64,000 nucleotides of DNA, taken from contig CAVYYE010000003.1 of NCBI GenBank assembly GCA_963772655.1, positions 2,609,341-2,673,340 of the forward strand. Reading direction: 5' to 3'. Position 1 is the first letter of the stretch. Every line of letters starts with the position of its first letter. Source of the DNA: an uncultured delta proteobacterium. Its GTDB lineage: Bacteria > Myxococcota_A > Polyangia > Haliangiales > Haliangiaceae. Shown piece after piece: positions 4,707-43,671 of this stretch. Under the pieces are notes generated by a model. The model did not search any database. It was not told the DNA's origin and saw nothing but the letters and a program-made list of their open reading frames with translations. The position numbers and the translations under genes are program-made.

Positions 4707-6884
<2,178 letters not shown>

Positions 6885-6902
6885 CGCGGTAGCATCGTCG
6901 CG

Positions 6903-7460
6903 ATGCGCGAGCTCGCGAACTCCGTGACGATCATGGCGATCGCGATCGCGATCGCGGCGTGCGGCGGCCATCACTACGATGCCTCCGAGGCCCACGCGAT
7001 CACGACGTCGGCCGTCGCGGTCGGAGATCGTGCCCCGAGCTCCACGTTGACCGACGCGTCGGGGCATCCCGTCGCGCTCGCGACGATCATCGGAGCGCAC
7101 GAGCGAACGATCGTCACGTTCTATCGCGGCTTCTATTGAAGCAGCTGCACGCGCTGGCTCGGCGAGCTGGCGAATCATGCGAGCGATCTCGCGGCGCGCG
7201 ATGCCGTGGTGGTGGCGATCGCCGCGGACGAGGTCGAGGACATGGCCGCGCTACAGACCCGCATGCGCGGCATCGTGTTGTTGACCGATCCTGGCCTCAC
7301 CGTGCTGCGCGCGTGGGGGGCCTTACTCCCGGGAGCCGAGCACCCCAGCCCGATCACGTTCGTGGTGAGGCGTGACGAACGCATCAGCTACCGGCACCCA
7401 CTCGACGAACACGGCGATTGGCCGCCCTATGCCAACGTGTTCGACGCGTTGTCGCGATAA
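6903..7460 (+). CDS. redoxin/AhpC-TSA family thiol-disulfide oxidoreductase lipoprotein with in-frame TGA at the active site (candidate selenoprotein, U-x-x-C); alternatively a pseudogene
   Basis: ORFs 6903-7139 and 7206-7460 are in the same frame and separated by a single TGA (7137-7139); combined product reads ...VGDRAPSSTLTDASGHPVALATIIGAHERTIVTFYRGFY-[TGA]-SSCTRWLGELA..., aligning to the redoxin FYRGxWCPxC motif with TGA at the first Cys; lipobox AIAIAACGG. Confidence 0.5.
7152..7172 (+). promoter_or_regulatory. candidate SECIS-like hairpin about 12 nt downstream of the in-frame UGA
   Basis: Inverted complementarity CGCUGGCUC / GAGCUGGCG (with G-U pairs) forming a ~9-bp GC-rich stem with a small apical loop, starting ~12 nt 3' of UGA; folding not computed. 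Confidence 0.25.
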
Positions 7461-7528
7461 CGCCGCATCACGCATACACCGGGGGCTTTTGTGGGAAACT
7501 CGCCACGCGGTAATCTCGAAGCTGGCTG

Positions 7529-9256
7529 ATGACGGCGGCATCTCCATCGCCCGACACGCACGATGTCGAGCTCGGCACCGTGCTGGACGGGCGCTACCGC
7601 ATCGATGCGGTGCTCGGCACCGGCGGGATGGGATGCGTCTATCGTGGCGAGCACACCGGCATCGGTCGCCCGGTGGCGATCAAGGTGCTCCACGCCGACC
7701 TCAACCGTAACCGCGAGGCCGCGCAGCGGTTCCAGCGGGAGGCGATCGCCTCCGGTCGCCTCGATCATCCCAACATCGTCGGAGTCAGCGACTTCGGCGT
7801 CCTCGAATCGGGCTCGTGCTACCTGGTCATGGAGGTGCTCGAGGGAGAGTCGCTCGGGACGCGCCTCGAGCGGGAGCGCCGGATCCCGTGGCCCGAGGCG
7901 CTCGCGATCCTGCGCGGCGTGCTTCGCGGCCTCCACCACGCCCACGAACGTGGCGTCGTGCACCGCGACATCAAACCCGACAACATCTTCCTCGCACGCA
8001 AAGACGACGAGACCGTGGTCAAGATCCTCGATTTCGGGATCGCCAAGCTGTACGCCGGGAGCGCCGACGATCCGGCCTCGACGCGCGCCGGGATCACGGT
8101 CGGAACGCCTGCCTACCTGTCTCCGGAGCAGGCGGTCGGCGGCGAGATCAAGCCGGCCTCCGACATCTACTCGACGTCGATCGTGCTCTACGAGATGCTG
8201 ACCGGGCGCCCGCCGTTCGAGGACGAGGATCCGCTCGCGATGCTCGGCGCCCACGTCAGCCGGCCACCGCCGCCGTTCGCGGAGCGCGCGCCGGATCTCG
8301 ACGTCCCTCCCGAAGTCGAGGCGCTGATCGATCACGGACTGGCCAAGATCGCCGCCGAGCGCATCGGCTCGGCGAACGACTACATCGCCCAGATCGACGC
8401 GATCCTGGCCGCCAAGCCCAGAGGAGGCGTCGCCGCACTGATCGCCTCGGAGCTCGGCGGTGCACCCGCGCTCGGCACGCAACAGACCGACCTCGCGATC
8501 GCGACCTCGATGCCAGGCAACATTGCCACCCCGGTCCCGGGCGGCGAGGCGGGTGTCGTCACGCCACTTCCGCGTGCCGCGACGCCGTTTCCCCAGCTGG
8601 CCACGCCGGTCCCCGGCACCGTCACCCCCGTGCCCGGCACCGCCACGCCGGTCCCCAACACCCCCACGCCAGGCACCGCCACGCCGGTCCCCGGCACCGT
8701 CACGCCCGTGCCCGGCGGCATGCACGTCGCACGAGCGATCCGTGCGGTGTCGATCGCCGATGCGGCCCCGATCCCGCGGCGATGGCTCGTGCGCGGCGCG
8801 GTGATCGCCGCGATCACGATCGCGGTCGTCCTGCTACTGATCCTGTTGCGAGGGGGCAAGAGCGATCACGCGAAGTCCGGGTCGACCGATCGTTCCGTTC
8901 CCACCAGGGCCGCGCCAACCCCGACGTTGTTGTCCCCGACACCGGTCTACAACGAGCGCGACGACGAGGAACATCAGACCAAGCTCAAGGCTGCGCTGTA
9001 CGAGCTCAAGGAAGGCAAGACCTGCGAGGATCGACGTGCCGCGATCTCCGACTTGCTCGATCTCGACGATCCAGCGGCGATCCCGGATCTCAAGCGCGCG
9101 CGCTATCGCATGCGCGGCGGCGTGCTCGGGATCGGTGACTCGAACACCAACGGGTGCCTCCGCAAGGATGCCGAGGAGGCGATCCAGGAACTGTCGCGCA
9201 ACCTGCCCGATCCACCACCCCGCAAGCGGGGACGCGGACGCGGGCGGCATTTCTAG
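7529..9256 (+). CDS. serine/threonine protein kinase (Hanks-type) with Pro-rich TPVPG repeats, TM segment and C-terminal HEAT-like region
   Basis: Kinase subdomains GTGGMGCVY, AIK, HRDIKPDN, DFG, TPAYLSPE; repeats TPVPGTVTPVPGTATPVPNTPTPGTATPVPG; hydrophobic segment AVIAAITIAVVLLLILL. Confidence 0.9.
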   Translation: MTAASPSPDTHDVELGTVLDGRYRIDAVLGTGGMGCVYRGEHTGIGRPVAIKVLHADLNRNREAAQRFQREAIASGRLDHPNIVGVSDFGVLESGSCYLVMEVLEGESLGTRLERERRIPWPEALAILRGVLRGLHHAHERGVVHRDIKPDNIFLARKDDETVVKILDFGIAKLYAGSADDPASTRAGITVGTPAYLSPEQAVGGEIKPASDIYSTSIVLYEMLTGRPPFEDEDPLAMLGAHVSRPPPPFAERAPDLDVPPEVEALIDHGLAKIAAERIGSANDYIAQIDAILAAKPRGGVAALIASELGGAPALGTQQTDLAIATSMPGNIATPVPGGEAGVVTPLPRAATPFPQLATPVPGTVTPVPGTATPVPNTPTPGTATPVPGTVTPVPGGMHVARAIRAVSIADAAPIPRRWLVRGAVIAAITIAVVLLLILLRGGKSDHAKSGSTDRSVPTRAAPTPTLLSPTPVYNERDDEEHQTKLKAALYELKEGKTCEDRRAAISDLLDLDDPAAIPDLKRARYRMRGGVLGIGDSNTNGCLRKDAEEAIQELSRNLPDPPPRKRGRGRGRHF

Positions 9257-22309: not shown

Positions 22310-23110
22310 CTAGGCGCGATCGCTCGGCCCGAACACGCGATTGCGTCCAGCCCGCTTGGCTTCGATCAGGTTCTCGTCGGCGGTCTGCAACGAGGTCGTC
22401 GAATCCGCGCCGAGCATCGCGACGCCGATCGAGACCGTGGCGCGGATCTGGTTCTGGTCGGCCTCGAACGGAACCGCAGAAAACTCGGGCTCGCAGGCGA
22501 CCCGGATTCGTTCGCCGAGCGCCTCCGCCTGTTCGACCGACGTGCCCGGCGCGACGATCACGAACTCCTCGCCGCCGTAGCGCCCGAGCAACATCGGCCA
22601 GGCGACGTGGCGCCGGATCCGCTCGGCGGTCAGCTGGATCACCTGATCGCCGGCCACGTGTCCGTAGTGGTCGCACAGCTTCTTGAGCCAGTCGATGTCG
22701 ATCAAGAGCAGCGCGCCGGCGGAGACTCGCTCGAGGTATCTCCACAACAGGCGCCGATCGAACAGGCCCGTCATCGGATCGACCACCGTATCGAGGTGAC
22801 GTTGCTCGCGCCGGGAGCTCTCTCCGTCACCCCCGAACAGCCGGAAGATGCGCGCGCCGATCACGAAGCGGTCGCCGTGGTGAAGCTCGACCTCGCTGGT
22901 CGCGAGCACATCTCCGACCATCGCGACAGAGGCACCGGGAATCAGTCGATAGCGACCGTCGCGGGCCGTGATCGTCGCGAGTGGCTGTTCGGGTGGCCCC
23001 TCCGGATCGAACAGCCCGCGACCGACAGGAAACCCGTAGGCGCCACCGATCGCGAGCTCGCCCTCGAACGTGACCCACCGCCGCGGCGACCTCCAGACTC
23101 CATCCACCAT
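22310..23110 (-). CDS. FHA domain-containing diguanylate cyclase (FHA-GGDEF)
   Basis: N-terminal FHA-like region (GRYRLIPGASVAMVGDVLATSEVELHHGDRFVIGARIF) and C-terminal GGDEF domain with intact RYGGEEF motif; start at MVDGVWRSP. Confidence 0.8.
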   Translation of the reverse strand: MVDGVWRSPRRWVTFEGELAIGGAYGFPVGRGLFDPEGPPEQPLATITARDGRYRLIPGASVAMVGDVLATSEVELHHGDRFVIGARIFRLFGGDGESSRREQRHLDTVVDPMTGLFDRRLLWRYLERVSAGALLLIDIDWLKKLCDHYGHVAGDQVIQLTAERIRRHVAWPMLLGRYGGEEFVIVAPGTSVEQAEALGERIRVACEPEFSAVPFEADQNQIRATVSIGVAMLGADSTTSLQTADENLIEAKRAGRNRVFGPSDRA

Positions 23111-23155
23111 CAACGTCGCGCGATCGCGGGCCACGATCGAGCTTACGATGTCCTC

Positions 23156-24181
23156 GTGGCCACGCGCGAGCAGCTCGCTGCCCAGATCACGGACACGCCG
23201 TACGACGACGAGCTGTACGTGATCTACGGCGACCTGCTGCAACAACATGGCGATCCGCGCGGCGAGCTGATCGCGATCGATGCCGCCGCGACCCGCGCTC
23301 CGGCCGACTTCGGTGCGTGGCGCCGGCGTCGCGTCGAGTGGCTGGCGGCACACCCCGAGCTGGTTCCCCCGAGCGACGGCGTCGAGCTGACCTGGCACCT
23401 CGGGTTCGTGAGACGCGTATCGGTGCACGAGCAATCCGCGCGACTCGCCGAGCTGGCCGCCCACCCGTCGCTCGCGTTCGCCACCGAGCTAACGCTGGAG
23501 CTGTCCAGGCTCGGTGCCGAGGACATCGCGACCACGACCGCCTCGTTTCCCCTCCTGTCGCGACTCGCGCTCGGCGATCCCGACGCGCGCTCGTGGGGTC
23601 GCGATGACGACACCGTCTACGACCTCGCCGTGATCGCACCGCGGCTCGAGGATCTCGTTTCCTCCGTGGCGGTCGCGTTCGAGCACGCGCCACGTCTGCG
23701 CCGGTTGTCCCTGCGGGAGGTCGACGCGCCCGCGCTCGCCCGCGTCGTGCGAGCCCGCCTCCCCACCCTCGAGGAGCTGTCGCTGAAACTCCAGCGTCCG
23801 CGATCGTACCGGCGCGCGAACCTGCCGCCGGTCGAGCTCGTCGAGCCCGACCATCTGCGCGAGTTGTTTCGCGCGCCTCCGCCACGACTGGCCACGCTCG
23901 AGCTGATCGACGCATTGCCCGGCGACGACGTGGTCGCGGCGCTCGTGGGGTCGCCGCTCCTCGCGCAGCTTCGCGTGCTCCGGCTGTGGAACGCCGATCT
24001 CACCGATGCGGCGGCGCGCTACCTGACGCGCGAGGCGTGCGGTCACCTCGAGCTACTCGACCTCACCGACCCGCTGCTCGACGGCGCGCTCGCCGCGCGG
24101 CTCTCGACCGCGTGCGACGACGTTCGCACGACGAACCCGGTACTCGATCACGTACTGGGGCGCGCTACTTCGAAGCCGTGA
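23156..24181 (+). CDS. leucine-rich repeat protein with N-terminal TIGR02996-like repeat-companion domain
   Basis: N-terminal YDDELYVIYGDLLQQHGDPRGELI matches the xYADWLEExGDPRGEFI motif of TIGR02996; leucine-rich C-terminal region; GTG start inferred; divergent from FHA-GGDEF gene. Confidence 0.55.
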   Translation: MATREQLAAQITDTPYDDELYVIYGDLLQQHGDPRGELIAIDAAATRAPADFGAWRRRRVEWLAAHPELVPPSDGVELTWHLGFVRRVSVHEQSARLAELAAHPSLAFATELTLELSRLGAEDIATTTASFPLLSRLALGDPDARSWGRDDDTVYDLAVIAPRLEDLVSSVAVAFEHAPRLRRLSLREVDAPALARVVRARLPTLEELSLKLQRPRSYRRANLPPVELVEPDHLRELFRAPPPRLATLELIDALPGDDVVAALVGSPLLAQLRVLRLWNADLTDAAARYLTREACGHLELLDLTDPLLDGALAARLSTACDDVRTTNPVLDHVLGRATSKP

Positions 24182-30991: not shown

Positions 30992-31112
30992 CGCGACGCC
31001 GCGGATCGCGCCGGATCACGACGAATCCGACAGCGAATCAACTTCATCGCCAACCGGCAGGGTCGATCTGTGAACCGCCGTTCGCGGCGCGGAGGTTGCT
31101 GAAGGGCGCGGC

Positions 31113-31718
31113 ATGAAATCCCGCATGTTCGTCCTCGGGATCCCGGTCGTCTTGGGGATCGCATCACACGGGGCTCGCGCCGGCGAGCTCGATCTCGACC
31201 TCGGCCTCCAGGCCACCACCACGCAGTGGGACGGCGATCGCGGCGGCGGCCCGGCCCTGTCCGCCGCGTGGTTGTTCCGGCCGTGGATCGGCGCATCGTT
31301 CGTCGGCAAGGAGCACTACGCCAAGATCGACGACCGCTTGATGAGCTACTTCAGCGTCAACGCCGTGTTTCGTCGTGCGTTTCACCGTCTGCGACTGTCG
31401 GGCAGCGTCGGGCTCGTGCACCAGCACGAGGAACCGAAGACGGCGATCGATGCGATGCCCCTGGCGTCGGCGTTCGGCGTCGCCGATGGCATCCGCCACC
31501 GGATGGCGTCGCGCGCCGGCGTCCAGCTCGCGATCCCGTTTCGCGATCGCACGAGAGGCGACTGGTACATCGGGCTCGATCTCGATGCGACCGTGTTCGC
31601 CGAGGCGACGCGCGGTCCGAGATGGATGACCTCGGCCGGCGTGTCGGTCGGCTTCACGCACGACTTCGCGGCGGACAGATCGAGCGCGGCGACGACTCCG
31701 CCGGTGGCACGGCAATGA
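31113..31718 (+). CDS. secreted hypothetical protein
   Basis: Signal peptide MKSRMFVLGIPVVLGIASHGARA; 201 aa. Confidence 0.5.
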   Translation: MKSRMFVLGIPVVLGIASHGARAGELDLDLGLQATTTQWDGDRGGGPALSAAWLFRPWIGASFVGKEHYAKIDDRLMSYFSVNAVFRRAFHRLRLSGSVGLVHQHEEPKTAIDAMPLASAFGVADGIRHRMASRAGVQLAIPFRDRTRGDWYIGLDLDATVFAEATRGPRWMTSAGVSVGFTHDFAADRSSAATTPPVARQ

Positions 31719-32053
31719 CCCGCGCGCTCCTCCCGTGTCTCGCGCTCGCGGGTTGCATCGATTCGGCGATGCCGATCGACGAGGCGACCTGTCCGCCGAG
31801 CGGCACCACGCTGACCTACGACAACTTCGGCGCCGGGTTCCTCGCGACCTACTGCAACCGCTGTCATTCGAGCGCGAGCAACGGTGCGCCTCCCGACATC
31901 AAGTTCGACACGCTGGACGAGGTCCACGCCCATGCCGACCGGATCTTCATCCGCGCCGCCGGACCGAACGTGACCATGCCGCCCGGGCCCGACGATCCGC
32001 CCGCCGAACAGCGCGACCGCCTCGCCGAGTGGCTCGCCTGCGGTGCCAACTAG
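31715..32053 (+). CDS. lipoprotein, hypothetical (Cys-containing)
   Basis: Start overlaps previous stop; MTRALLPCLALAGCIDS lipobox; 112 aa; followed immediately by long palindrome. Confidence 0.45.
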   Translation: MTRALLPCLALAGCIDSAMPIDEATCPPSGTTLTYDNFGAGFLATYCNRCHSSASNGAPPDIKFDTLDEVHAHADRIFIRAAGPNVTMPPGPDDPPAEQRDRLAEWLACGAN

Positions 32054-32137
32054 GGTCAGACACAAGTTGCACAAGTTTGTACGGGGACAGACCGCGGTCT
32101 GTCCCCGCTACAAACTTGTGCAACTTGTGTCTGACCC
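32054..32137. repeat. perfect 84-bp palindrome (42-nt arms, centre CCGCGG), AT-rich arms
   Basis: GGGTCAGACACAAGTTGCACAAGTTTGTACGGGGACAGACCG|CGGTCTGTCCCCGTACAAACTTGTGCAACTTGTGTCTGACCC reads identically on both strands; starts immediately after stop codon of 31715-32053. Confidence 0.9.
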
Positions 32138-32231
32138 CCCTGCCGGCTAGCGCGGTAGCCATCCCGTGCCCACGTAGATCCGCGGCGATGGAGAGCGCCG
32201 CCGCTGGCATGCCGGGTGCTCTACCCGGGGC

Positions 32232-33674
32232 GTGTCGCGTACCCGTTCGATCGGTGGCTGTTTGTTCGTGGGTTTGGCGTGGTGCGTCGCGGGTTGTTCC
32301 GACGCGCCGGCCACCACGGATCAGGATCCCAACGCGGGTCTGCTGCGCGACTTCCTCGACGGCAAGTTCGACTCCGCAGGCCACCCGCTGAACGCGAAGG
32401 TGATCGAGGCCGAACAAGCATGCGCCGGTGAGGTCCGAGACGGCGCGGTGATCCTGCGCGAGGCCTGCACGATCGCACTTCCGGACAACGCGCAGAGCGG
32501 TGGCCTCGTGGTCGACCTGCGGCTGCGCATCGGCGAACACGCGCCCTCGGGCGAGCTGGTTCGCGCGACGGTGCTCGACGATCGCGGCGAGGTCGCGAGC
32601 GAGTCGCTGACCGTCGATCGGTTGCGCGAAGGCGACGACTGGATCGATCTCGCGGTCAGCTTTCACGGGAGCGCCCGCGAGCTACGCATCGATCCCGCGG
32701 CCGACGCGGGCATCGAGCTCGACAACGTCGAGGTGTTCCCGCAGCGCTTCGGGCTCGCGATCGCGCCGGGCTCCGGCGTGCTCGCCGATGACGACGTGCT
32801 CACCTTCGAGCTACCCGAGCTCCGCAAGCTCGACACGCTCACCGCCGACGGCGTCGATCTCCTGCCGAAGCTCGACGAGCTGTTCGCGAGCGGGGATGCC
32901 ACGCGCACGACCACCGACGTCCGGACGTTGATCGAGGTCCCGGTCGGCGCGCTGCTCCCCGATCGCGGCGAGGTCACCGAGCTCCGTGCGCACGGCGCCG
33001 GCGATGCGGCACGCATCCAGATCCGGCGCACGCCCGCCGCGTGCGAGTTCGAAGGCGACCCGAACGGCACCAAGGTGCTGGTCACCGGGTTCCAGCCGTT
33101 CCCCGCGGATGGCTGGCACGACAACGTGGCCGAGATCGCGGTCACCGCGATGGATCCGTCGGTGCTGCGCGGCGCGCAGGTGATGCGGATGGTGCTGCCG
33201 GTCGAATACGACCGCGCGGCCGACGCGATCTCCGACGCGATCGAACGCTGCAGCCCCGACGTCGTGATCAGCTTCGGTCAAGGTGGCGGCGCGATCGCGC
33301 TCGAGCACACCGCCTACAACCTGCAGGACACCGGAGAGATCGCCGGCGGCGTCCCCGACAACCGCGGCGTGATCCGCGGCGCCCAGCCGATCGATCCCGC
33401 AGCGCCACCCGAGCGCTCGACGCTGCTTCCGATCGACGACATCCGCGTCGCGCTCGAGGCGATCGGCGAGCAACCGCAGGACAGCACCGACCCCGGTCGC
33501 TACATCTGCAACAACGTCATGTTCCAGGACATCGCGGCCATGGGTCCGCGCGGCGGTCGCGCCGGGTTCATCCACCTGCCGTACACGGCCACGTTCGACG
33601 ACGACGTGCGCGCCCGCTTCGGCCACGTCGTCGAGGCCGCGATCCAGGCGACGATCGACGCCGGCCACGAGTAG
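32232..33674 (+). CDS. lipoprotein with C-terminal pyroglutamyl-peptidase I (peptidase C15)-like domain
   Basis: Lipobox WCVAGCSD; C-terminal KVLVTGFQPF...DVVISFGQGGG...PDNRG...GRYICNNVMF resembles pyrrolidone-carboxylate peptidase; ~270-aa N-terminal domain unknown. Confidence 0.7.
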   Translation: MSRTRSIGGCLFVGLAWCVAGCSDAPATTDQDPNAGLLRDFLDGKFDSAGHPLNAKVIEAEQACAGEVRDGAVILREACTIALPDNAQSGGLVVDLRLRIGEHAPSGELVRATVLDDRGEVASESLTVDRLREGDDWIDLAVSFHGSARELRIDPAADAGIELDNVEVFPQRFGLAIAPGSGVLADDDVLTFELPELRKLDTLTADGVDLLPKLDELFASGDATRTTTDVRTLIEVPVGALLPDRGEVTELRAHGAGDAARIQIRRTPAACEFEGDPNGTKVLVTGFQPFPADGWHDNVAEIAVTAMDPSVLRGAQVMRMVLPVEYDRAADAISDAIERCSPDVVISFGQGGGAIALEHTAYNLQDTGEIAGGVPDNRGVIRGAQPIDPAAPPERSTLLPIDDIRVALEAIGEQPQDSTDPGRYICNNVMFQDIAAMGPRGGRAGFIHLPYTATFDDDVRARFGHVVEAAIQATIDAGHE

Positions 33675-41968: not shown

Positions 41969-43165
41969 TCAGCGCAGCTCGGCGAGGCGGTCCTCGAGGA
42001 ACCGGCGCTCGGGCTCGGTGCCCGCCAGCTCGAGCGCCCGCCGGTAGGCCGTGCGCGCCGCGCGCTTGTCACCGCGTTGCGCCTGCAACTGACCGATCGC
42101 CGCAGCCAGCACCGGATCGTCGTCGAGCCGCGCGTCGCCCGCGACTTGCTGGAGGGCGCGCAACCCGACCTTCGGTCCGTGGGCATGCCCGATCGCGATC
42201 GCGCGCTGCATCGCGACCACCGGCGAGGGTTGCAGGGCGAGCAGACGATCGTAGAGCGCGACGATTCGCGCCCAATCGGTCGCGTCATACACGGGGGCCA
42301 ACGCGTGACACGCCGCGATCGCCGCCTCGACGTGATATGGCGACATCGCGTCGCCGGCCGAAGCCGTCGCGAGATGCGCGAGCCCGGTCTCGATCATGCC
42401 GCGGTCCCAGCGCGTGCGGTCCTGCCGATCGAGCGACACCAGGTTTCCGGCCTCGTCGACGCGCGCCGCCAGCCGCGCCGTCTGGAGCAAGAACAACGCG
42501 TGCAACGCGTGGCCTCGCGGGGTCGGAAACCGTTCGAGCACCAACTCGTGGAGCCGGATGGCCGTGCGGCAGAGATCCTCGTCGATCTGTTGCTCGCCCG
42601 CGTGGACGCTATAGCCCTCCAGGAACAGCACGTACAGCGTTCGCAGGACCGCGTCGAGCCGCAGTTCGACATCGTCGGTCAGCTCGAGCTCGACGCCGAG
42701 CTCTCGCAGCGTCTGGCGAGCGCGCAACAGCCGCTTCGCGATCGCCGCCTCGTCGGCGTACAGCGCGCGGCACAGCGCCGGCACCGGGAACCCGCACAGC
42801 GTGCGCAACGCCAGCGCCAGCGCACTCTCCACCGGCAACGCGGGGTGGCAACACACGAACATCATCCGCAGCAGCGCGTCATCTCCCGTCGGCGGATCGG
42901 GAACCGCTTCGATCGCGTCGAGCTCGTCGGGTGGCGCGAACCGTGCCGCGCGACGCAACGCATCGATCACGCGCCGGCGCGCGACCTCGTGGAGCCAGGC
43001 CGCCGGCCGTTCCGGTGGAGTCTCGCCCCAGGCCTCGAGCGCGGCGACGAACGCTTCCTGCACGCCGGCTTCGATCACATCCAACCGGTGCGGCCCGAAC
43101 GCGTGGGCGAGCGACGCGATGAGGAACGGCGCGTGCTCGCGATACAGCGCGTCGAACGAGATCAC
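41969..43165 (-). CDS. ECF sigma factor with C-terminal TPR-like extension (ECF42-type)
   Basis: N-terminal sigma-70 region 2 (FDALYREHAPFLIASL..) and region 4 (LRTLCGFPVPALCRALYADEAAIAKRLLRAR), ~200-aa C-terminal helical/TPR-like extension; GTG start inferred. Confidence 0.8.
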   Translation of the reverse strand: MISFDALYREHAPFLIASLAHAFGPHRLDVIEAGVQEAFVAALEAWGETPPERPAAWLHEVARRRVIDALRRAARFAPPDELDAIEAVPDPPTGDDALLRMMFVCCHPALPVESALALALRTLCGFPVPALCRALYADEAAIAKRLLRARQTLRELGVELELTDDVELRLDAVLRTLYVLFLEGYSVHAGEQQIDEDLCRTAIRLHELVLERFPTPRGHALHALFLLQTARLAARVDEAGNLVSLDRQDRTRWDRGMIETGLAHLATASAGDAMSPYHVEAAIAACHALAPVYDATDWARIVALYDRLLALQPSPVVAMQRAIAIGHAHGPKVGLRALQQVAGDARLDDDPVLAAAIGQLQAQRGDKRAARTAYRRALELAGTEPERRFLEDRLAELR

Positions 43166-43671
43166 GGCGCGAGCATCGCACGCGACGCCGAAAGTGCCGA
43201 ACCCCCTCCACGCTTGCGCGGGAAGGGGGCTCGTCGGAGTTGTCTTTGGTGGCGTGATCGGGGTGTCGGCGTGTGCGAACCGTAGCGTGCTAGGCCGGCG
43301 AGAGCCGGGGCGACGAGCTAAGCGGTCATTCCACACAACGTCGCGACGACGGCGACCAGCGCGTTCTCCTTCTACAGCTTACGGATCGTCACGTGCGTGC
43401 AACAAATGCGACCTCCATCGGTAACCCGGCTGACTCGAAGAGTCCCGTGGCTTTGCGTAGCCCGCTCGCGCGGGGGTTGCCGTTTCGTGGCGCGGGATGT
43501 TCCCCGCCTGGTGTCGATACGACTACCTCGAAGGACCTGCCCTGATACGAGTCGCTGTTCTCACTCTCCTCCTTTGGTTGGTCGAAGGTGATTGATTCCA
43601 CCGTAACGGAAGCGAGTGCGAGTTGTCACGAGAAAATCGACGACGAGAGATCGTCATCGCGCAAGCGCGCG

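Follow-up and report, generated by a model that had tools for sequence, protein, structure and literature searches.

A long palindrome in a Kofleriaceae-like myxobacterial contig is probably a gene-less dimer of transposon terminal repeats

We have analysed a 64-kb window, i.e. the whole stretch of 64,000 nucleotides (nt) from an uncultured delta proteobacterium (assembly GCA_963772655.1, contig CAVYYE010000003.1, positions 2,609,341 to 2,673,340), with a focus on a long palindrome that is located between two co-directional lipoprotein genes: the product of the upstream gene is cytochrome-like, while the product of the downstream gene contains a pyroglutamyl-peptidase domain. The palindrome is composed of two nearly identical units in inverted orientation, whose sequence recurs, in other contigs, on both sides of genes for a particular type of transposase. 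Transposase genes that resemble those of REP-associated tyrosine transposases (RAYTs; REP, repetitive extragenic palindromic sequence), but are flanked by terminal inverted repeats (TIRs) and not by REPs, are known as TIRYTs/TIRtrons (Di Nocera, De Gregorio & Rocco 2013, PMC3733652). We argue here that the palindrome is probably a gene-less, REPIN-like dimer of the TIRs of such a TIRYT/TIRtron (TnpA_REP subclass 2.1) family, in a Kofleriaceae-like myxobacterium.

The locus does contain a very long inverted repeat, as the original prediction, made from the sequence alone, had stated; its span is 85 nt (Table 1) and not the 84 nt (32054-32137) that had been assigned to it, and it is not flawless, with the right arm reading CCCCGCTACAAAC where CCCCGTACAAAC had been given: an extra C at position 32108 is present on the right, and the two arms are 42 and 43 nt long. 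Each arm is laid out as GGGTCAGA, CACAAGTTG, CACAAGTTT and a GC-rich centre; thus arranged, two inverted TIR-type units are joined head-in, with their GGG(G) ends pointing outwards, in the manner of a transposon that has no interior. A second, inward motif of the GGGGWSAS type occurs in each arm, around the central CCGCGG that had been noticed from the start, and the C run at the right end reaches position 32140, i.e. one to three bases past the complementary stem. The low G+C content of the arms relative to surroundings of about 70% is also borne out: it is 38% in the core (32061-32081) and 55% in the whole element, compared to 68% in the window and 70% in the flanks of 500 nt on either side.

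The palindrome is far beyond chance. As RNA, the element folds with -87.5 kcal/mol (z -12.3; none of 200 shuffled sequences equals it), and as DNA, with -49.1 kcal/mol (z -15.6), while the runner-up local inverted repeats of the window are 19-27 nt long and 70-89% complementary. The inverted-repeat scan reports the element as a 34-nt pair and a 16-nt central palindrome, because of the extra C. No chance match to the 19-mer core of the arm is expected in the 64-kb window, and no second copy has been found there by searches with up to three mismatches, by the inverted-repeat scan or by nhmmer profiles; at the Rfam gathering thresholds, no family matches the palindrome locus.

Table 1. Features of the palindrome and the two genes that border it (positions of the window).
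Feature	Position	Strand	Description or basis
Whole palindromic element, 85 nt	32053-32137	.	Sequence, folds, profile matches to both arms
Left unit, 42 nt	32053-32094	+	GGGTCAGA-CACAAGTTG-CACAAGTTT-GTAC-GGGGACAGAC-CG
Right unit, 43 nt	32095-32137	-	Reverse complement of the left unit except for an additional C (32108)
Outer end motif of the left arm, (A)GGGTCAG-A	32053-32060	+	7/8 to GGGGWSAS
Outer end motif of the right arm, GGGGTCAG	32131-32138	-	Exact GGGGWSAS
Two tandem 9-bp boxes, CACAAGTTG and CACAAGTTT	32061-32078	+	Low-GC core
Mirror 9-bp boxes, AAACTTGTG and CAACTTGTG (plus-strand letters)	32112-32129	-	
GC-rich centre	32083-32106	.	Includes the 16-nt perfect central palindrome
Inward GGGGWSAS-type motif of the left arm, GGGGACAG	32083-32090		
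Inward GGGGWSAS-type motif of the right arm (mirror), CTGTCCCC	32099-32106		
CCGCGG	32092-32097		
Single unpaired C	32108	+	Sole break in symmetry; one bulge in the fold
Upstream gene, 112-aa lipoprotein with CxxCH	31715-32053	+	Last base of its TAG stop codon (32051-32053) belongs to the element
Downstream gene, lipoprotein with pyroglutamyl-peptidase (C15) domain	32268-33674	+	

The search for relatives of the palindrome has been extended to other genomes and to metagenomes. Among 185,579 species-representative genomes, the 19-mer core of the arm yields only three chance matches to a single arm (in Ruminococcus, Arenimonas and Bacteroidetes), none of which is palindromic. In the scan of metagenomes with the 17-mer CACAAGTTGCACAAGTT, on the other hand, many of the matches are low-GC chance matches, but a number of high-GC contigs were recovered as well; in the high-GC contigs, the 17-mer is embedded as GGGGTCAG(A/G)CACAAGTTGCACAAGTT..., i.e. 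it is preceded by the same GGGTCAG(A/G) end as in the arms of the window. The uniqueness of the palindrome, which the original prediction had considered, thus holds within the 64-kb window and is lost once other genomes and metagenomes are searched. In viral contigs, the 38 matches to the 17-mer are all low-GC chance or tandem-repeat matches, and none belongs to the family; tandem (GCACAAGTT)n runs, or several 17-mers that are not preceded by the GGGGTCAG end, occur in viral contigs (L129, L130/L132/L144, L157) and in other contigs of low or middle GC content (L028, L029, L057), and are probably unrelated tandem repeats.

Three further palindromic dimers, on three contigs of one metagenome project, have been identified (L061 4317-4399, L101 2337-2420 and L105 5224-5317). 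Their outward ends are the same as in the window, each of their arms contains three to four 9-bp boxes, and their GC-rich centres differ; as DNA, they fold with z values of -5.6 to -12.4. All three are gene-less and intergenic, and two of the three begin 5-8 nt past a stop codon. The general unit of the family consists of a GGG(G)TCAG(A/G) end, two to four tandem 9-bp boxes of the CACAAGTTG type and a GC-rich segment; in single units, which fold weakly (z -0.7 to -3.0), this last segment is a small hairpin, e.g. TGTCCG-N4-5-CGGACA.

The same 25-26-nt sequence of the arms flanks, in inverted orientation, genes for HUH/Y1 transposases of about 295 aa. In contig L098, two copies that are located about 1 kb apart in inverted orientation bracket an open reading frame (ORF) of 293 aa, and eight further TIRYT gene loci on ten contigs from metagenomes or metagenome-assembled genomes (L164, L165, L166/167, L168/169, L170, L171, L172 and L173-175) encode proteins that are 48-82% identical. 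The layout is the same at every homologue locus with DNA: upstream of the gene there are one to several direct copies, whose GGGG end points away from it, and downstream there is at least one inverted copy. A TIR profile that was built from these gene-flanking repeats only, with the window and the dimer sequences excluded, matches the window at 32053-32077 (+) and at 32137-32113 (-), with an E-value of 1.8e-8 for each arm, while nothing below an E-value of 3 is found elsewhere in the 64 kb. Of the candidates that had been listed for the palindrome, the remnant of a small mobile repeat is therefore the one that the evidence favours: the arms belong to a family that flanks TIRYT genes and that occurs elsewhere as gene-less dimers.

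The number of units around one TIRYT gene is not fixed. The same TIRYT protein (P0138) is encoded at the same site in three samples, with four and three flanking units in the first (L173 6197-7680), two and four in the second (L174 2786-4132), and at least two and six in the third (L175 20-1659); this makes it a dynamic family. Another intergenic region of L173 (2988-3330), 3 kb from the TIRYT gene, is occupied by a separate array, with five units in direct orientation.

Two side observations concern the ends of these elements. In the upstream arrays of L164 (5623-5936) and L172 (302-1700), truncated units (GAAGGGTCAGGAGG, GGGGTCAGGC) are directly followed by a full GGGGTCAGGCACAAG...; the truncated units resemble the inward GGGGACAGAC of the arms of the window, which suggests that the repeats are broken and joined immediately behind GGGGWSAS(R)C. 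At L098, the reading frame of the neighbouring gene (ORF 6527-7750) passes through the TIR without a stop codon (7475-7750, minus strand), so that the end of that gene may have been replaced or lengthened by the element.

The protein that is associated with the family is a RAYT-like HUH/Y1 transposase with a C-terminal domain that resembles domain IV of DnaA. The L098 protein matches the Pfam family Y1_Tnp (IS200-like) with 28.1 bits (cut-off 23); among its 420 database homologues, many are labelled 'REP element-mobilizing transposase RayT' by JGI, and most are located on short contigs, as is expected for genes amid repeats. Across 78 homologues, there is no variation at the two histidines of the HUH motif, H60 and H62, or at the tyrosine of the segment AYIHNNPVRA, Tyr118. 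The AlphaFold2 model of the L098 protein (mean pLDDT 90.4) has its best Protein Data Bank (PDB) match in 4ER8, the E. coli REP-associated tyrosine transposase on a REP hairpin (E-value 6e-7), followed by TnpA structures of IS200/IS605 (2XM3, 2VJV and others; E-values 1e-4 to 1e-2). The C-terminal segment resembles Bac_DnaA_C with an E-value of 2e-4, a match that falls short of the cut-off of that family; in the model, the C-terminal region of about 95 residues superposes on the DNA-binding domain of M. tuberculosis DnaA in complex with a DnaA box (3PVP) with a TM score of 0.80 and a root-mean-square deviation of 2.3 Å. The comparison of folds was needed for these assignments: PDB searches by sequence, with the single sequence or with a profile of seven sequences, missed 4ER8 and returned only weak matches to DnaA and Xre.

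The presence of a DnaA-like domain directs attention to the 9-bp boxes of the repeats. The GGGTCAG(A/G) end is constant at the nine TIRYT loci, whose proteins are 48-100% identical, and the 9-bp periodicity is present at all nine; the sequences of the boxes, however, vary by lineage, in step with the helix of the transposase that is aligned to the DNA-reading helix of DnaA. The comparison comprises six independent lineages, too few for statistics: helix TQQAVS occurs with box CACAAGTTG, TQQAAS with CACAACTTG/CACAAGTTG, SPQAVS with CGCAAGTTG/ATCAAGTTG, SQQAVS with CACAACTTG/CGCAACTAA, SPQRVS with CTCAACTTG and SQPSAS with CATGCGTTC. The boxes themselves do not resemble the DnaA box beyond chance: the box AGTTGCACA agrees with TT[AT]TNCACA at 7/9 positions, and by our estimate about 0.65 such matches are expected in an 85-mer.

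Domain IV of DnaA reads 9-bp boxes in duplex DNA. As a tentative model, possible rather than probable, we propose that the repeats of the family are two-part sites, in which the constant GGGGTCAG(A/G) end would serve the HUH/Y1 domain, and the two to four boxes would be read as duplex by the DnaA-like module; the palindromic dimer would then be the preferred substrate, because its folding on single-stranded DNA restores duplex boxes. If the model is true, it describes a mode of substrate recognition that has not been described for HUH/Y1 transposases, and it offers a function for the DnaA-like domain, which was left open by Quentin et al. 2018 (PMC6006769). The correlation between box and DnaA-like domain, which is possibly new, provides a concrete and cheap biochemical hypothesis.

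In the explanation that we favour, each arm of the palindrome would be one TIR, made up of the constant GGGGTCAG(A/G) end, two 9-bp boxes of the CACAAGTTG type and the GC-rich segment; the two TIRs would face each other, with the GGGG ends outward as in a full TIRtron and with nothing between them. By analogy with the E. coli TnpA_REP and with the TnpA of IS200/IS605, the element would have been placed or copied in trans by a TIRYT that is encoded elsewhere in the genome. Its substrate, again by analogy, would be the single-stranded DNA of the replication fork, in which the dimer could snap into a 42-bp hairpin; the cut by the HUH/Tyr domain of the enzyme would fall at the constant GGGGWSAS end or close to it, and the DnaA-like domain would probably read the 9-bp boxes, duplex again in the folded hairpin. 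No target-site duplication is found at the borders of the element (CCAACTA | CCCTGCC), which fits a Y1 enzyme. Directly outside the GGGTCAG end, CTAG is present at the left end in the window (32050-32053) and at both TIRs of L170 (5871-5874 and 6950-6953), and CGGA(A)C is present instead in L061, L101, L105 and L164; the CTAG flank could reflect a preference for a target or cleavage site, or chance.

Several points weigh against this explanation. The window contains one copy in 64 kb and no TIRYT gene, and classical REPIN populations are much denser; both of these results cover 64 kb of the source genome. None of the 120 homologues listed is located on the 2,888,863-bp contig of the source. 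Close copies are rare in sequenced genomes, given that the exact 19-mer core is missing from the 185,579 species representatives. The best NCBIfam match of the L098 protein, REP_Tyr_transpos, reaches 46.6 bits against a cut-off of 80. The centres of the four known dimers differ, and the dimers are therefore not simple copies of one master dimer; moreover, the local collapse of a full element would look identical to the transposition of a mini-element. Finally, no transposition event, no empty site in a near-identical strain and no cleavage site has been observed.

The lipoprotein gene after which the palindrome had been placed is indeed directly adjacent: its ORF starts with MTRALLPCLALAGC..., contains the lipobox LALAGC and a haem-binding-type motif, CNRCH, and the last base of its stop codon is the first G of the element; an exact-protein look-up of its 112-aa product returned no record. 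The downstream product is 100% identical to a protein on a 2.89-Mb NCBI/ENA contig; its next relatives are proteins of metagenome-assembled genomes of Kofleriaceae/Myxococcota, with at most 74% identity. The closest ortholog locus (L005, 74% at the amino-acid level) has the cytochrome-like gene, with a weak Cytochrome_CBB3 match, and the peptidase gene next to each other and arranged as they are in the window. When the two loci are aligned, conservation extends to the stop codon and resumes in the last 95 nt or so before the peptidase gene; between the conserved blocks, L005 contains about 240 nt of unrelated sequence, with no palindrome and no hairpin, and the palindrome of the window occupies exactly the non-conserved part of the spacer. 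The comparison with the orthologous intergenic region, which had been suggested as a check, thus finds the palindrome absent from the closest ortholog. The conserved block of about 95 nt (window ~32142-32235, L005 ~1402-1495; e.g. GCCGGCTAG, GATCCGCGG.GATG, GCTGGCA and GTGCTCTAC...GGCGTG) may be, from its conservation, a promoter or leader of the peptidase C15 gene.

The position of the palindrome relative to the upstream gene could be taken to mean that the hairpin has been selected by the host for a function in RNA, as a terminator that has no tail, as a stabiliser of the 3' end of the mRNA or as an RNase III site, its likeness to transposon ends being secondary. The stability of the RNA stem, its start at the stop codon between co-directional genes and the similar placement of two of the other dimers, 5-8 nt past stop codons, are in line with this explanation; Liang, Rudd and Deutscher are said to have reported in 2015 that E. 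coli REPs stabilise the upstream mRNA, and that, when located within about 15 nt of the stop codon, they reduce translation and interfere with termination and with the release of ribosomes. However, the hairpin is not conserved at this position, with the spacer of the nearest relative having none; it is the sequence, and not merely the structure, that matches the transposase-flanking repeats; a stem of 42 bp is more than ordinary terminators need; and no T tract follows the stem, the terminator scan being empty. We consider an RNA function as the reason for the sequence to be unlikely. An ordinary intrinsic terminator in particular is not supported, because the stem is followed by CCCTGCCGG and not by a T/U tract, and no terminator-like site has been found in 31000-33000. 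If the element is co-transcribed, its RNA stem of -87 kcal/mol, starting at the stop codon, could shield the upstream message from 3' exonucleases, serve as a target of RNase III, or obstruct termination and the release of ribosomes; such effects would be side-effects, and not the reason for the sequence.

The spacer also bears on the possibility that the palindrome is an operator or a cruciform, bound by a transcription factor or a nucleoid protein of the host and regulating the downstream peptidase gene. Its dyad symmetry, with four copies of a 9-bp box, and its location about 95-130 nt upstream of the next gene are what such a site would show; nevertheless, the boxes recur at loci that are unrelated to this one, both beside transposase genes and in intergenic DNA, neither neighbouring gene encodes a regulator, and the orthologous promoter region has no such element, even though the gene-proximal 95 nt or so are conserved. 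The absence of the palindrome from the closest orthologous spacer leaves the regulatory or cruciform site of the original prediction unsupported, and we regard it as very unlikely.

The contig itself could be at fault: fold-back reads can create palindromes, and the palindrome could mark a fold-back chimera or a mis-joined contig. An independent assembly of short reads (Logan contig from ERR11594398, L004) matches the outer 28 nt of the right arm and the downstream flank base for base, junction included; its first position corresponds to 32110 of the window, i.e. the contig stops inside the right arm and does not span the element. The two arms share no 31-mer, their exact identity being only 29 nt; the break of the Logan contig is for this reason less likely to be caused by a repeat in the assembly graph, and more likely to reflect a drop of coverage in the hairpin or a difference between strains in the bulged C. 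Against an artefact stand also the single-base asymmetry, which is not expected from a fold-back, the presence of the same kind of dimer in independently assembled metagenomes, and the flanks: the genes on the two sides differ from each other and follow the order of L005, so that a large inverted duplication is absent. An assembly or sequencing artefact has, accordingly, an even smaller chance of being the explanation than a host operator.

The single bulged base and the start at the stop codon are also reminiscent of other recombination sites. The attC sites of integrons, 57-141 bp long, form imperfect palindromes with extrahelical bases, and directly follow the stop codon of the cassette; in the region 32031-32160, however, neither RYYYAAC nor GTTRRRY is present on either strand, and no array of similar sites is found in the window. 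A miniature inverted-repeat transposable element (MITE) that derives from a DDE transposon is spoken against by the missing target-site duplication. With the sequence explained by the TIRYT family, an attC site, a protelomerase (telomere-resolution) site or a DDE-derived MITE has, in our view, hardly any probability at all.

In addition to the palindrome, the window contains a c-di-GMP-I riboswitch (RF01051) at 43417-43491 (minus strand; 52.8 bits against a gathering threshold of 35), which is its only Rfam match; no tRNA or tmRNA genes were found. The riboswitch is located directly upstream of a gene (41969-43378, minus strand) whose product combines Sigma70_r2, DUF6596 and TPR, the architecture of an ECF-type sigma factor, and a gene for a GGDEF diguanylate cyclase is located in the same window at 22310-23488 (minus strand).

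For annotation, the identification as a TIR dimer would mean that the palindrome is ordinary selfish or domesticated DNA, and that it should be annotated neither as a special terminator or operator nor as an error of the assembly. For the host, the 42-bp stem, with its start at the stop codon, is a candidate for modifying the expression of the upstream cytochrome-like lipoprotein. The family adds a myxobacterial, Kofleriaceae-like case to the little-studied TIRYT enzymes of TnpA_REP subclass 2.1. Repeat arrays of varying number around TIRYT genes, together with distant dimers, are the pattern that is expected if TIRYTs spread their repeats as RAYTs spread REPINs; in contrast, a systematic survey has reported no REP-like sequences near subclass 2.1 genes (PMC6006769).

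Lastly, we compare the element with the systems that it resembles. With the MITEs of bacteria, such as Correia/NEMIS, ERIC and RUP, it shares its short, gene-less, intergenic and largely palindromic character, and a stable RNA fold when co-transcribed; those elements are, however, DDE-derived and accompanied by target-site duplications, whereas the window has none, and the related enzyme is of the Y1/HUH type. The IS200/IS605 elements, e.g. IS608 and ISDra2, have in common with the family the HUH/Y1 catalytic fold, the lack of target-site duplications and the use of single-stranded hairpin substrates, which is to be expected here; they differ in that their ends are unlike left and right subterminal hairpins, and not identical inverted repeats, and in that they carry their transposase, with or without TnpB, and are present in multiple copies as whole elements.

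The likeness to REPINs (Bertels & Rainey 2011, PMC3116915, PMC3337134) is closer: in both cases, two inverted units form one hairpin of about 85-100 nt that is extragenic and non-autonomous, and that is tied to one HUH/Y1 transposase gene with copies of the repeats on its own flanks; the enzyme of the present family has 4ER8 as its best structural match. The units themselves are of a different kind. A REP unit is an imperfect palindrome of 20-40 nt, typically with a GTAG tag, whereas the arm of the window is not self-complementary and has no GTAG at its end: it is a 26-nt non-palindromic TIR with 9-bp direct repeats, tagged by GGGGWSAS. In addition, the two units of the window abut, with no unique spacer between them, the transposase is about 130 aa longer owing to its DnaA-like domain, and the density is one element per 64 kb, where REPINs number tens to hundreds per genome. 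Very abundant flanking 16-mers have been found only for RAYT groups 2 and 3, with 57-140 per replicon, and modest numbers for the other groups (Bertels et al. 2017, PMC5581495); the low density observed here is compatible with the modest numbers of these other groups.

It is to the TIRtrons that the family is most naturally compared. Many of their TIRs share GGGGWSAS, and some genomes carry the TIRs as singles, dimers and clusters (PMC3733652); most TIRYTs belong to TnpA_REP subclass 2.1, which is marked by C-terminal extensions of the Bac_DnaA_C, HTH_23 or HTH_28 type, and GGGG[AT][CG]A[CG] has been noted to be unlike the DnaA box (Quentin et al. 2018, PMC6006769). The present family differs in its origin, high-GC genomes of Myxococcota that are Kofleriaceae-like (a text search of PMC3733652 and PMC6006769 found no mention of either name), in the two to four tandem 9-bp boxes of its TIRs and the small GC hairpin of its single units, and in that the window holds a dimer only, without the gene. 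Several features are shared: the GGGGWSAS end is present, exactly in the right arm of the window (GGGGTCAG) and at seven of eight positions in the left (AGGGTCAG); the repeats of the family flank a Y1 transposase gene in inverted orientation, at nine loci, none of them in the window; single, dimeric and clustered repeats are found at a distance from the gene as well; and the transposase, as in TIRYTs, carries a Bac_DnaA_C/HTH extension at its C-terminus.

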